This document shows, piece by piece, positions 2,790-6,886 of a DNA stretch of 16,972 nucleotides. The first letter of the stretch is position 1, and every line of letters begins with the position of its first letter. The notes beneath the pieces were generated by a model. It was not told the origin of the DNA and ran no database searches. It saw only the letters and a list, made by a program, of their open reading frames with translations. The stretch comes from a virus: positions 128,001 through 144,972 of IMG/VR virus record IMGVR_UViG_3300045988_145100. One strand, given 5' to 3'. The translations under genes and the position numbers were made by a program.

Positions 2790-3293
2790 ATGAGCGGATT
2801 TTCTGCTGTCACTTATGCGCTTGCTAAAAAAGCTAGTAAGCAATATGCAGACTACCTTTTTTCTAAAGTGGGTGCATTAGATATTCAATTCGTTGATTCA
2901 TTACCAACAGTTGATATAAAAGAAAAAACAATTTATTTTGTACCGGCTTCTGCAGAAAAAACTTCTTACAATCAATATATGTATGTTGATAGTAATTGGG
3001 TTTTAGTAGGAAGTACTGAACTTAATTTAGATAATTATTATACTAAAGATGAGTTAAAAAAAGAAATAGCAAATATACTTCCTATTGCGACAGAAGATAA
3101 GCTTGGTGCAATTATAATTGATAACAATTCTATTTTAATAGAAGATAATGGTAAAATTCATATATCTGATGATTATATTAAGAATTTAATATCAAAAGAT
3201 TATATCCAAGAGAGTATAGATACGGAAGTTGTTCAGGATATAATCAATAGAAGTTTAATTACTAAAGAAGATATTGATGAATTATTTATTTAA
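2790..3293 (+). CDS. Hypothetical protein (167 aa), possibly tail-associated
   Basis: Strong RBS aaaaggagg. The stop overlaps the next ATG (TAATG). No recognisable catalytic motif. Confidence 0.55.
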   Translation: MSGFSAVTYALAKKASKQYADYLFSKVGALDIQFVDSLPTVDIKEKTIYFVPASAEKTSYNQYMYVDSNWVLVGSTELNLDNYYTKDELKKEIANILPIATEDKLGAIIIDNNSILIEDNGKIHISDDYIKNLISKDYIQESIDTEVVQDIINRSLITKEDIDELFI

Positions 3294-3310
3294 TGAGAGG
3301 AGATAAATTA

Positions 3311-4516
3311 ATGGCTAAATATTTAGACAAAGAAGGTCTTGTAGCTTATGACGCAGCGATTAAAAAATATAATAAAGTTTATATCAAAGCTGCAGAGACA
3401 CCTGAGACTGGCTATGCCGCAACTTATGAAATTTATCAAGGTGTTAATGATTTAGGTGCACCTACAGGAACGGCATCTAAAATTAATATTCCTTTTAGTA
3501 AAGTATTAAAATCTGGTGAACTTAGAGAAGATGTTGATAAGGTTTATATTGATTTATTTTTTGATGAAGATAAAACAGATAAAATATCAGTAGATATTAC
3601 TTCTATTACTACAGATATTGATAATTTACAAAAAGAAATTACTAAACTTGAAGGTGAAGATAGTGTTGAAGGTTCTATTAAGAATTTAATTAAAGAGCAT
3701 GCAACAGTATCTATCACAACTAGCACTACAACAGAAGGTGCTTTAAAGACATATACTTTTACACAGAATGGCGCAGAAATTGGTAAAGTTGATATTCCTA
3801 AAGATTTCTTAGTTAAATCAGGTAAAATAACTGATTTTACTAAAATTGGAGAATTATACTATCAAGATGGTGAGAATATTCTTGCATTACCAGACGGTGT
3901 AACAGATGATAAACTTGGAAAATATATTGAATTAATTATCAATGTTCAAGAGGGAACTGCCGATAATCAAAAAATTTATATATATGTTAAAGATTTAGTT
4001 GATGTTTATGAAGGTACTGATAACAATATTATTAAAGTAGTTGTTGGTTCTAATAATAAGATTTCTGCAACTATTGATAATGCAGCAATCACAAAAGCTA
4101 TGTTATCACAAGAAGTATTAGATAGCATTGCTGCAACTGGTGAATCTCTTGTATTTAAAGGAACTATTGCTACACTTCCAACAACAGCTAAAGTTGGTGA
4201 AGTATATTTAAGCGGAAATAAATTATATATTTGTACAGTAGCTTCAAGTGAGAGTGTAACACCTACATACGCGGATGTTGCTATTGATGAAGCATTTTTA
4301 ACTTCTGTTCTTGGAACGGATTATAAAGTTAATGCAAAAGCATCAACAGTTAAAGCATATATTGATTCTCGTGTATTTATGGGAACAGAGTCAGAGATAG
4401 CTGCAGCCAAAGCTGCAGGTAAGATTGATGATACTACAATCACTATTGTAGTTGATGAAACTGCAGAAGAGCTTACTCCTATTACAGATGCAGAAATTGC
4501 AGCAATGTTTGCATAA
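3311..4516 (+). CDS. Tail fibre / receptor-binding-like protein (402 aa counted from ATG 3311)
   Basis: The N-terminus MAKYLDKEGLVAYDAAIKKYN is paralogous to the N-terminus of the 1019-aa fibre (MSKYLTKIGLTKYTTKLKEYI). The RBS ggaga is 7 nt before ATG 3311, and the upstream ATG at 3293 has no RBS. Thr/Ser-rich beta-rich body. Confidence 0.55.
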   Translation: MAKYLDKEGLVAYDAAIKKYNKVYIKAAETPETGYAATYEIYQGVNDLGAPTGTASKINIPFSKVLKSGELREDVDKVYIDLFFDEDKTDKISVDITSITTDIDNLQKEITKLEGEDSVEGSIKNLIKEHATVSITTSTTTEGALKTYTFTQNGAEIGKVDIPKDFLVKSGKITDFTKIGELYYQDGENILALPDGVTDDKLGKYIELIINVQEGTADNQKIYIYVKDLVDVYEGTDNNIIKVVVGSNNKISATIDNAAITKAMLSQEVLDSIAATGESLVFKGTIATLPTTAKVGEVYLSGNKLYICTVASSESVTPTYADVAIDEAFLTSVLGTDYKVNAKASTVKAYIDSRVFMGTESEIAAAKAAGKIDDTTITIVVDETAEELTPITDAEIAAMFA

Positions 4517-4526
4517 TTCTAAAAAA

Positions 4527-4537
4527 TATGATATAAT
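4527..4537 (+). promoter_or_regulatory. Extended -10 promoter (tatGaTATAAT), copy 1 of a 5-copy motif
   Basis: TGnTATAAT preceded by an A-tract (aaaaaatatgatataat). Lies 30 nt upstream of the glycosyltransferase RBS. Confidence 0.6.
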
Positions 4538-4568
4538 TGAATAAAAGAGATAAAAGGAGATTATTGCA

Positions 4569-5119
4569 ATGAGTAAGAAAGATGTAGCTATTGGAATTCC
4601 TGCTTTTCATGCAATAGAAACAATAAAAGATACTTTGGCATCTATTCAGATACAGAGTTATAAGACTAGATGCCAGGTTATTATTGCTAATGACGACCCC
4701 GCAGATAATGGAAAATATGATTTTTTAAAAACATTATATCCAGATTTAGAAATTATTACAGTAAACTGTGATAAAAATGCGGGTCCTGGTATTGCAAGAC
4801 AAAGAGCATTAGATGCTTGTACTGCGGAATGGATAACTTTTATAGATGCTGATGATATTTTTATTTCACCATTTTCTATTGAAAGTCTATTAGATAATAC
4901 AACTCCAAATTGTATTGAAGTACAAGGTCCATTCTTCCAAGAGATAGAACAAGGTAAGATGAGTGTTGCAGAAAAACAACAATTAATTCAGATGGGGCAA
5001 GGAGTACCTCCAAGAATGATGCCGCGTAATGATGTTACACATCCTTGGGTATTTGGTCGTTTATATCGAGTTTCATTCCTTAGAGAAGCTGGAATTAAGT
5101 TTTCTGAATTGCGCGCCAT
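4569..5119 (+). CDS. Family-2 glycosyltransferase, exon 1 (N-terminal 183 codons plus 2 nt)
   Basis: GT2 signature: IGIPAFHAIE...VIIANDDPADNG...NAGPGIARQRALDAC...ITFIDADDIF (DxD motif) ...HPWVFGRLYRVSFLREAGIKFSE. The reading frame runs into a stop (5124-5126) that lies inside the predicted intron. Confidence 0.7.
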
Positions 5120-6196
5120 TAACTAATTCAGTGGCTTTACCTTATGAAGGGTAATGAAAAATCTGTTTAATTGCTGGAAACCCCTAAAGCTCTTATACTA
5201 TTATATAAAATATAATAGGGCGAAAGCAGAAATAAGTTAAGAGATGTATTATGGAGTAATCCTAAAATATTATAAGACAATGGGCAATCAGCAGCCAAGC
5301 TTAACAATAATAATAAAATATAAAATAATAGCTATCTAATTTTAATAAAAAGGAGTTATTAAATAATAAAATGATAGGTATTTATAAAATTACTAATAAT
5401 ATAAATAATAAAGTTTATATTGGTCAAAGTATTAATATTGAATCTCGAATAAAAGACCATTTTTTTAAAAACTATAGTAATGAAAAACATTATCATGGAG
5501 TCCTTGATAAAGAAATTAGTGAGACAGGTGTTGAAAATTTTTCATGGGAAATTTTAAAAGAATGTAAAAGAGAAGAATTAAATCAATATGAAATCTATTA
5601 TATTTCTTTATATAATAGTTGTGACCCTCTTAAAGGTTATAATATAAAAGGAGGAGGGTCTCCAATTCTCAATGGTCAAAAACGAAAAATTATTGATACT
5701 GACACTTTAAAAATTTATGATGGTTGTATGGAATGTGCTAATCAATTAGGAATTAGTCAAGGTGATTTGTCTAGAGTTTGTAATCACTTACAAGGTCAAA
5801 TCAAAGGTCATCATTTTATGTATCTTGATGAGTATAATGAAAAAGGAAAAATAGATTACAAGCCTATAGAAAATCATGGACAGTCAAAACAAGTTAAATG
5901 TCTTGAAACAAATGTTATTTTTGATAGTGCGCATGAAGCAGGTCGACAAATGGGATTAAATTTTAGATTAATCTCGGCTGTATGTAATGGGAAAAGAAAA
6001 ACAACAGGTGGCTATCATTTTATTTATATTTAATTATTATTAGTTAAGAAGGTTCAACGACTATCCTCGGCGGAGGAGTAGGATTAAGCAATCCGAAATG
6101 GCAGACAACTTTTTAAAAGTTGGTGATATAGTCTAGACTAGATAGAGATATTTAGCAGTTCATAAGAGAACGGGTATAGCTTAGCGAACTATACTG
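5120..6196 (+). mobile_element. Group I self-splicing intron (IA2-like, with an ORF in the P6 loop) interrupting the GT2 gene
   Basis: P1: exon gccaU(5115-5119) pairs with IGS gtggc(5131-5135), with a U·G wobble at the splice site. P2: ttacc/ggtaa. P element aattgctggaaa (5169-5180). Q element aatcagcagc (5286-5295), with P4 covariation tgctg/cagca. R element gttcaacgacta (6052-6063). S element gatatagtc (6125-6133), with P7 gacta/tagtc. P9 hairpin gtatag...ctatac (6173-6194) followed by omega G6196. Joining 5119 to 6197 restores the reading frame. Confidence 0.75.
5371..6033 (+). CDS. GIY-YIG homing endonuclease (I-TevI-like), encoded inside the intron
   Basis: N-terminal MIGIYKITNNINNKVYIGQSINIESRIKDH...N..E..YI matches GIY-(10)-YIG...R...H/E. 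The C-terminal region is Lys/His-rich and looks like a DNA-binding domain. It lies between the Q and R core elements, which is the P6 loop position also used in the phage T4 td intron. Confidence 0.8.
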   Translation: MIGIYKITNNINNKVYIGQSINIESRIKDHFFKNYSNEKHYHGVLDKEISETGVENFSWEILKECKREELNQYEIYYISLYNSCDPLKGYNIKGGGSPILNGQKRKIIDTDTLKIYDGCMECANQLGISQGDLSRVCNHLQGQIKGHHFMYLDEYNEKGKIDYKPIENHGQSKQVKCLETNVIFDSAHEAGRQMGLNFRLISAVCNGKRKTTGGYHFIYI

Positions 6197-6848
6197 AATA
6201 TATCGGGAAGACGGACAATTCAACTGGGAAATACGAATGAGTATAGAAGGTTCTCCATTAATGATAAATCGTATTGAAGACCCTATCTATCTTTGGAGGA
6301 CTGGTTCAGAACACTCTATTACAAGAATAGGTATGGAAGAAAATGGCGGAATTCCATTATACAATTGGGATTTATGTCTTGTCGGTTCAACCGCTGCGGC
6401 AATTAATGCAATTAAATTTTGTAAAAAGAAAAATCCTTTTAATGGAGGAATTACTCGATTTACAGTTGAGCAGATGGTTTCTCATTACTTTAGCTATATT
6501 AAATGTTTAAATGAAAAACCAATGTTTGCAGAACAGAATCTTTTTAATGCAAAAAGATTTTATCATAGTTGCTATAAAGAAATTGAAAATCAGATTGATG
6601 AAGAAATTTTAAAAACTATGTATACTGCTCAATATGCGGGAATGGCTCAGGATATGATAAACATAATTCCAGAGATTACATTTTTTGAATTTATGAATAA
6701 AGTAAAAACAGAGCCTTATAACGGAAAAGAAGAATTTGATACACTTAGAGAAAAATTACCTAAATGGGTTATTGATTTAGATAAGAAGTCTGGCGTATTA
6801 GGTGATGAAGGTTATGTTTATACAGTAGATGAAAAGAACGAGAAGTAA
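6197..6848 (+). CDS. Family-2 glycosyltransferase, exon 2 (C-terminal portion; spliced protein about 400 aa)
   Basis: The predicted junction gives ...FSELRAI|IYREDGQFNWEIRMS..., restoring the conserved GT2 'ED..F.W.IR' motif just downstream of the insertion site. The frame is open from 6198 through the ATG-6237 ORF to the stop at 6848. An alternative 3' splice site after g6205 (...LRAMEDGQF...) cannot be excluded. Confidence 0.65.
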
Positions 6849-6866
6849 TTCTCGTTCTTTTTTATT
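6835..6866 (+). terminator. Rho-independent terminator overlapping the GT2 stop codon
   Basis: agaacgaga / tctcgttct around the loop agtaat, then ttttttat. Confidence 0.7.
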
Positions 6867-6886
6867 TATATAGGAAGGAGAATAAA

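Follow-up and report, generated by a model that had tools for sequence, protein, structure and literature searches.

We analysed a stretch of 16,972 nucleotides (nt) of viral DNA, i.e., positions 128,001 to 144,972 of the IMG/VR record IMGVR_UViG_3300045988_145100, which we call the window and to which all coordinates below refer unless another contig is named. In this window, a gene for a predicted GT2 family glycosyltransferase is interrupted by an insertion, 5120-6205, that we consider, with a probability of about 0.93, to be a mobile group I intron of the IA type found in phages, the type that includes the T4 td intron and those of the Twort-like Staphylococcus phages. We observed that the gene is split, that its halves meet at an exact junction, that the intervening RNA has a conserved and covarying fold, that it holds an intact endonuclease open reading frame (ORF), and that close relatives differ in whether they carry the insertion. 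A sequence-only reading of this DNA had proposed a group I intron with a looped-out GIY-YIG ORF inside the GT2 gene, and the precise junction, a profile match and covariation now support that proposal, with a corrected 3′ end.

A glycosyltransferase gene in two exons

According to the ORF list and the translation, the frame that opens at ATG 4569 stops at 5124-5126, directly past ...FSELRA(IN*). The same absolute frame reopens at 6198, reads ...EDGQFNWEIRM... and runs to a stop codon at 6846-6848. The sequence-only reading had described this correctly, with a frame ending at 5126 and resuming at about 6200 with EDGQFNWEIR. The whole split gene covers 4569-6848 and is organised as follows, the intron-less alleles being those of two related contigs, L001 and L004, and L027 being a third contig with a homologous intron.

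4569-5119, + strand: GT2 exon 1, codons 1-183 and the AT of Met184 (ORF list, Pfam, collinearity with the intron-less alleles up to 5119)
5120-6205, + strand: putative group I intron of 1086 nt, subgroup IA-like with P7.1 and P7.2 (intron-less alleles L001 and L004, partial Rfam matches, nhmmer profile, covariation)
5371-6033, + strand: predicted GIY-YIG homing-endonuclease ORF of 220 amino acids (aa), in the P6a loop (Pfam, PHROG, 1MK0 alignment)
6196-6205, + strand: 3′ tail of the intron, GAAUAUAUCG, ending on the omega-G 6205 (junction, homologous tail in L027, tail pattern recurring in the family)
6206-6848, + strand: GT2 exon 2, the G of Met184, then EDGQFNW... to the stop codon

The junction was fixed both by proteins and by DNA. 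A search with the spliced protein of the sequence-only reading returned 760 homologues, and among the best 120 of these almost all are uninterrupted and about 394 aa long. We aligned 12 of them to the spliced protein, one of which (P0001, 397 aa) is 98% identical to it; all 12 read ...FSxLRAM-EDGxxNW..., with no gap, and place the junction at RAM-EDG. Besides hundreds of such more distant full-length homologues with an uninterrupted gene, we found two close intron-less alleles, one in a Logan contig (L001) and one in a 150-kb IMG/VR contig (L004). Their GT2 proteins (P0001/L001 and L004) are 98% identical to the spliced product, their flanks show about 94-96% nucleotide identity, and the L004 site reads ...GAGCTGCGAGCTATGGAAGACGGACAG.... 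Both alleles match the window collinearly as far as 5119 and resume at 6206; the intron therefore spans 5120-6205, with G6205 as its omega-G. Its length is a multiple of three (1086 nt = 3 × 362). The junction is U5119|G6206 (AT|G GAA), where Met184 is assembled as AT|G, and exact excision behind the terminal omega-G restores the frame found in L001, L004 and the 12 homologues. The spliced product has 397 aa (...ELRA-M-EDGQFNW...). Read unspliced, the gene would give only a truncated protein of 185 aa, since an in-frame UAA stands 5 nt into the intron.

The sequence-only reading had put the 3′ end 9 nt earlier, i.e., an intron of 1077 nt with omega-G 6196, exon 2 from 6197 and a spliced protein of about 400 aa reading ...RAIIYREDG.... 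G6196 does lie directly 3′ of a hairpin, and a 5119|6197 splice is likewise in frame. However, all 12 aligned homologues, including the one at 98% identity, have M where this version has IIYR, i.e., three extra residues, and the DNA of the intron-less alleles resumes exactly at 6206 and not at 6197. The blastn similarity to Staphylococcus phage introns extends beyond 6196 to 6205, and no P10 pairing adjoins 6197. The hairpin that had been taken for a terminal P9 is P9.2 (6173-6195), and a 10-nt tail follows it. The L027 intron likewise has a 10-nt tail, GAAGAUUUUG, between its P9.2 and its own verified junction, parallel to GAAUAUAUCG of the window; this is an independent argument for omega-G 6205. 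An intron end at 6196 is thus highly improbable. The splice donor at 5119 stands as proposed; exon 2 starts at 6206.

The product of the host gene is predicted to be a GT2 family glycosyltransferase. The spliced protein matches Pfam PF00535 Glycos_transf_2 at 54.4 bits (cut-off 23.3), and in the alignment of the 12 homologues both the DxD-type motif FIDADD (residues 91-96) and the E/D after Met184 are invariant. When cultured or deposited phages were searched, a megablast of 4400-7000 gave zero matches and a tblastn of the spliced GT2 only three weak ones, all below 30% identity; the gene is therefore without a carrier among the described phages.

The ribozyme core

We checked all helix coordinates base by base in the window sequence. 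The pairings that the sequence-only reading had recognised, namely P1 between exon GCCAU and guide GUGGC with a U.G at the splice site, P4, and the R and S elements forming P7, are all present. The helices, all on the + strand, are listed here with their two strands separated by a slash.

5115-5119 / 5131-5135, +: P1, exon GCCAU with internal guide GUGGC, U5119.G5131 at the 5′ splice site
5127-5129 / 6207-6209, +: P10, guide strand UUC with exon 2 G6207-A6209, 3 base pairs (bp), weak
5137-5143 / 5148-5154, +: P2 hairpin, 7 bp, loop AUGA (free-energy fold and structure-preserving changes in a second contig, L016)
5162-5167 / 6100-6105, +: P3, UCUGUU with GGCAGA
5172-5177 / 5288-5293, +: P4, UGCUGG with UCAGCA
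5182-5184 / 5282-5284, +: P5
5190-5195 / 5238-5243, +: P5a, part of the P5 extension, supported by relatives
5198-5218, +: P5b hairpin of the P5 extension
5220-5227, +: GAAA hairpin of the P5 extension
5295-5296 / 6051-6052, +: P6, CC with GG
5300-5314 / 6033-6048, +: P6a, 15 bp with bulged A6042, closing the loop that holds the endonuclease ORF
6057, 6059-6063 / 6129-6134, +: P7, A6057 and GACUA (6059-6063) with UAGUC (6129-6133), the 3′ strand UAGUCU lying within the conserved GAUAUAGUCU
6064-6077, +: P7.1 hairpin
6081-6094, +: P7.2 hairpin
6106-6122, +: P8 hairpin, 7 bp
6138-6155, +: P9, GAGA loop
6158-6171, +: P9.1
6173-6195, +: P9.2
6136-6137 / 6203-6204, +: possible P9.0, G6136-A6137 with U6203-C6204

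The 3′ strand of P6a overlaps the last base of the endonuclease stop codon (6033). Two extra hairpins, P7.1 and P7.2, stand between P7 and P3′ as in subgroup IA (IA2-like). Together with the ORF in P6a they suggest an intron of subgroup IA-like, T4 td-like layout, a combination that we take, from established subgroup knowledge, to be the phage IA arrangement.

This structure is largely recovered by free energy and strongly backed by covariation. An unconstrained minimum free energy (MFE) fold of the ORF-deleted RNA contains P1, P2, P4, P5, P6a, P7.1, P7.2, P8, P9, P9.1 and P9.2, and lacks only the two long-range helices of the pseudoknot, P3 and P7. For covariation, we compared 66 ORF-deleted cores, i.e., those of the window, L016 and L027 and of 63 relatives, using as controls structures whose 3′ partners were slid by 1-3 columns, and 500 shuffles. 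Standard pairs occupy 90.2% of 4321 cells in the proposed structure vs 35-44% in the slid controls, and the covariation score is 0.448 vs at most 0.091; the structure was derived from one row of the alignment, that of the window, and the comparison with the slid controls is biased in its favour, but even so the gap is large and the number of compensatory changes clear. As many as 58 of the 77 pairs change on both sides, and none of the 500 shuffles reaches the observed values. For P3, 99% of the cells are paired, five of the six pairs change on both sides, and most positions show four pair types; P7 is paired in 95% of the cells. P5a, P6a, P8, P9 and P9.2 all covary, and in P7.1 and P7.2 the outer stem pairs are conserved across the family while the loop-proximal pairs covary. 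Covariation thus backs the core helices from P3 to P9, including the P3/P7 pseudoknot.

Some pairings of the MFE fold were discarded. Two of them, 5162-5168 with exon 2 and 6124-6130 with the 3′ tail, lack conservation in L027 and are incompatible with P3 and P7, which covary; a third, 5191-5196/5272-5277 in the P5 extension, was replaced by the P5a given above.

The same intron occurs in a second contig, IMGVR_UViG_3300045988_154566 (L003/L016). Its 3′ core is 100% identical to that of the window, and most differences in the 5′ part fall in loops or are neutral for pairing: in P2, a U.G becomes C-G, a U-A becomes U.G and the loop AUGA becomes GUGA; in P6a, the stem is kept and the bulge differs. 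The exception is one change in a peripheral hairpin of the P5 extension. A separate peculiarity concerns the P5b loop (5207-5209), which is AAA in the window and UUU in L016 between identical stems, and resembles a loop inversion of a palindromic hairpin.

Models and profiles point to the same family. In E-value mode over 5050-6300, Rfam RF00028 Intron_gpI gave a match of 31.6 bits (E=6e-6) over 5886-6155, in which GGUUCAACGACUA...AAUGGCAGAC...GAUAUAGUCU, i.e., P7, P3′ and P7′, is the part aligned with confidence. A second match, 5172-5333 at 12.8 bits, corresponds to P4-P5-P6. A blastn search with the 3′ core returned 537 phage records, including Twort-like Staphylococcus phages, whose alignments span query 15-176, i.e., window 6044-6205, and end at the proposed omega-G; the matching region of PV017447 carries the annotation Intron_gpI. 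The exact core motif GTTCAACGACTATCC(N2-12)GGAGTAGGA occurs in at least 119 IMG/VR viral contigs, and 11 of 14 sampled loci with this motif, all 11 being ORF-less relatives, gave Intron_gpI matches (15 in all, 59-113 bits, gathering score 50). Finally, we built a profile hidden Markov model solely from 63 non-redundant ORF-less relatives and searched it with nhmmer. It matched the ORF-deleted intron (5317-6031 removed) at 169 bits (E=5.6e-52) over positions 21-334 of its 356; on the intact window, it found the 3′ half only, at 109 bits. On these grounds the intervening RNA is predicted to belong to a recognised group I ribozyme family. Neither a protein-level insertion nor a reverse-transcriptase ORF is present, and an intein and a group II intron were set aside on that ground.

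Several points weigh against the intron interpretation. When the whole window was scanned at the Rfam gathering scores, tRNAs and a c-di-GMP-I riboswitch were the only matches; the intron was missed, because the ORF insertion splits the core. The Intron_gpI check that the sequence-only reading had suggested, taken literally on the intact sequence, falls short of the gathering score (31.6 vs 50 bits), since the 717 nt that P6a encloses (5315-6032) are too long an insertion for the model to span. P10 is weak, with 3 bp offset by an A.G mismatch; one peripheral hairpin of the P5 extension differs between the window and L016 in a way that makes its conservation doubtful; and the endonuclease ATG, which has AAGGAG upstream, lies 15 nt from GGAG, a long spacing. 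Lastly, splicing itself is deduced from what is known of the family.

These points leave room for two other explanations. The first is that no splicing takes place, and that two separate GT2 fragment genes, whose halves work separately or not at all, are split by a free-standing endonuclease gene. GIY-YIG genes that stand free between other genes are common in phages (general knowledge; PMC10448857), and the silent gathering scan is consistent with one. Against this stand the complete covarying group I core on both sides of the ORF, the internal guide that matches the exon end with a U.G, and an excision exact to the single nucleotide. Moreover, the second GT2 half has neither start codon nor ribosome-binding site where homology resumes; the first ATG, at 6237, comes 10 codons into the conserved block. 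We therefore find such an arrangement barely credible.

A decayed intron, in which splicing would be poor or lost and this GT2 copy effectively a pseudogene, is somewhat easier to entertain and still very unlikely. The weak P10 would fit it, GT2 may be dispensable for the phage, and a catalysis deduced from family behaviour leaves room for it. On the contrary, every core helix is intact, as are the conserved P4, P7 and J8/7-type motifs, and the same intron persists in L016 with differences mostly in loops or helix-preserving. The exons of the two contigs differ at 19 of 1194 nt with no frameshift and no stop, and the endonuclease ORF is intact in both. A mobile and functional group I intron is thus the interpretation that we retain.

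The putative endonuclease and the presumed mobility of the intron

The 220-aa ORF within the intron is predicted to encode an intact I-TevI-like GIY-YIG homing endonuclease. It matches Pfam PF01541 GIY-YIG at 41.6 bits (cut-off 22.6) and PHROG 314 homing endonuclease at 1e-30, and at its N-terminus it can be aligned with the catalytic domain of I-TevI (1MK0, E=4.5e-5), GIY (3-5), YIG (15-17), R26, E73 and N91 all being in place. A C-terminal DNA-binding module (residues 184-217) matches PF22083, I-HmuI NUMOD-like, at 45 bits (cut-off 27), and a second, weaker NUMOD-like repeat was seen by eye only around residues 104-148. The sequence-only reading was right about this looped-out ORF, which we can now place in the P6a loop. 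Ahead of it, the AU-rich spacer UUAUUAAAUAAUAA (5350-5373) could form a small hairpin that would shorten the distance between the Shine-Dalgarno sequence and the ATG. I-TevI itself is known to be under translational control.

From the known behaviour of this family, we propose the following course of events. The intron would be transcribed within the GT2 pre-mRNA, and the RNA would fold into the P1-P10 ribozyme. An exogenous guanosine would attack after U5119, which the guide GUGGC holds in place within P1; exon 1, once released, would then attack after omega-G 6205, and the exons would be ligated into one GT2 frame of 397 codons. The ORF in the P6a loop would provide the I-TevI-like GIY-YIG endonuclease with its NUMOD-like DNA-binding repeats. 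During a mixed infection with a related phage whose GT2 allele lacks the intron, this enzyme would cleave that allele close to the insertion site, and the break would be repaired on the intron-bearing template, by which the intron is copied in. Endonuclease activity and homing, like splicing, would here be expected by analogy with characterised members.

The distribution of the intron among close relatives is polymorphic. It is present in the window and in L016, where the endonucleases are 98% identical, and both intron and endonuclease gene are absent from L004 and L001. The exon sequence just upstream of the insertion differs accordingly at two positions: intron-bearing window and L016 have C at 5114 (-6) and 5117 (-3), and intron-less L004 and L001 have T at -3 and A or G at -6. 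The C at -3 turns a G.U of P1 into the Watson-Crick pair G5133-C5117. These variants could reflect co-conversion, adaptation of the exon to the guide, or immunity to the endonuclease.

Genomic context, relatives and other introns in GT2 genes

The related IMG/VR contigs measure about 120-165 kb. Next to the split gene, the following elements were identified.

4508-4537, + strand: promoter-like site TTTGCA-18-TATAAT with TG, upstream of the GT2 start (consensus match only)
6831-6862, + strand: terminator-like hairpin overlapping the GT2 stop codon (consensus match only)
6887-9946: tailspike-like ORF with a Peptidase_G2 / pre-neck-appendage domain, downstream of GT2

In the same consensus scan, promoter-like matches within the intron showed no excess over the AT-rich expectation and were left uninterpreted. 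The sequence-only reading had located the GT2 gene between two tail-fibre genes; this is supported for the downstream side only, where a tailspike-type ORF follows, whereas the upstream ORF 3293-4516 (407 aa) has no family match. An endolysin-like ORF (767-1672) combines glucosaminidase and CW_7 repeat domains, and the CW_7 suggests a Gram-positive host. A radical-SAM ORF (9984-10916) comes directly after the tailspike-like gene. Five tRNA genes lie on the + strand, at 1-63 (cut by the window start), at 251-323, and in a tight cluster of three at 11019-11244. Just downstream of this cluster, ORF 11855-13330 (+) has DUF2828, DUF7788 and vWA domains, matches PHROG 850 'RNA-binding protein' (3e-123) and is Ro60/TROVE-like; no Y-RNA-like Rfam match was found near it. 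A full-length c-di-GMP-I riboswitch aptamer (13375-13448, +; Rfam RF01051, 62.3 bits, gathering score 35) stands directly in front of ORF 13441-14364, which has a CAP/SCP domain; a second-messenger switch of bacteria would here control a phage gene.

Among known systems, the T4 td intron with I-TevI is one of the closest: like the window intron, it is group I with P7.1 and P7.2, loops a GIY-YIG ORF out of P6a, and interrupts a conserved motif of its host enzyme. The host, however, is thymidylate synthase in T4 and a GT2 glycosyltransferase here; DNA binding relies in I-TevI on a zinc finger, a minor-groove helix and a helix-turn-helix, whereas the window endonuclease has two NUMOD/I-HmuI-like repeats; the window intron has a P5 extension (P5a/P5b and GAAA hairpin) that distinguishes it from td; and nucleotide similarity is undetectable outside the core. 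At the DNA level, the 3′ core (P6a′ to omega-G) is matched best by the orf142-type introns of the Twort-like Staphylococcus phages, with 76-77% identity over 6044-6205 and the same order P7, P7.1, P7.2, P3′, P8, P7′, P9. Unlike the window intron, they are about 230 nt long, ORF-less, devoid of the P5 extension and inserted in a virion-protein gene.

By the 169-bit profile match, the uncultured-phage family defined by GTTCAACGACTATCC...GGAGTAGGA is of the same ribozyme lineage as the window intron. A subset of this family shares the P5 extension, and L027 has a related GIY-YIG ORF in P6a, but most members are ORF-less, unlike the window intron, and sit mostly in major-head, DNA-polymerase, helicase and terminase genes. 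Some contigs hold two or three group I introns that pass the Rfam threshold, within 2-2.5 kb in L117 (2939-5276) and L089 (8920-10885), and 4.5-6.5 kb apart in L035 (2494-9007) and L113 (2870-7426). The L117 and L089 clusters recall the multi-intron orf142 of phage Twort.

The sequence-only reading held that phage introns reside mainly in DNA-metabolism or lysin genes, which is an outdated view. In the upstream exons of 70 distinct loci carrying the ribozyme lineage of the window, collected with a crude exon finder, the most frequent named family was the major head protein, and DNA polymerase, helicase/primase and terminase also occurred. The matches included one unnamed family and endonuclease families as well; some of the latter are probably neighbouring intron ORFs picked up by the exon finder. 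No glycosyltransferase family was among the 25 commonest upstream-exon families of these 70 loci. Introns in terminase, capsid and tail genes are described in the gut-phage literature (PMC12880540, PMC3706429), those in capsid and tail genes being documented in PMC3706429. Gut jumbo/crAss-like phages harbour thousands of group I introns, many of them confirmed as spliced by metatranscriptomes (PMC12880540). As in the window, introns and homing endonucleases fragment genes of uncultured phages there, although the gut Jug/crAss-like genomes measure 360-402 kb with terL, nrdD and DNA polymerase as the reported host genes (PMC12880540), vs a group of about 150-kb phages and GT2 in our case. As an intron host, GT2 is thus uncommon and unsurprising in kind.

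The GT2 genes themselves have been invaded more than once. Among 31 viral-contig GT2 homologues, two more, in L027 and L030, are interrupted. The L027 intron (3237-4169 of its contig, 933 nt) is inserted at HP|W (T|GG), 76 nt upstream of the site used in the window. It is of the same ribozyme lineage, with about 73% identity in the 3′ half of the core, and has a perfect 11-bp P6a around a GIY-YIG ORF of 34% identity; its guide, GCGG/ACCU, matches its own exons, where that of the window is GUGGC. The L030 intron (5082-6000 of its contig, 919 nt) is inserted at MED|G, 7 nt downstream of the window site, and has its own GIY-YIG ORF and a P1 of GGAGGAU with GUCCUCC. Its core is different, and reaches 23 bits in Rfam (E=0.002) when 1 kb is searched alone. 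An Rfam E-value scan of L030 and L027 as whole loci gave zero matches, because the filters tighten with more sequence. Excising each intron at U|...G| restores exactly HPWVFGR in L027 and RAMEDGEFNW in L030. The three insertions, at independent sites that span about 85 nt, hit two invariant blocks: that of L027 lies in HPWVFGR, and those of the window and L030 stand on either side of the E-D of LRAMEDG.

For annotation, the consequence is that gene callers will report two truncated glycosyltransferase pieces and a stray endonuclease where the real product would be one enzyme of 397 aa. Our understanding of how group I introns and homing endonucleases work is unaltered by the GT2 intron. With it, the phage genes that IA-type introns have invaded come to include that of an accessory, non-replicative enzyme, located next to a gene of tailspike type. 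The invasions concentrate on invariant motifs, as they do in ribonucleotide reductase (RNR), polymerase and terminase genes. At slightly less than even odds, the GT2 family would be a hot spot for introns, within which a single ribozyme lineage has changed address, a move that could have occurred by reverse splicing or by drift of the endonuclease. If this is true, the GT2 loci would form a natural series for how an intron and its endonuclease retarget together.

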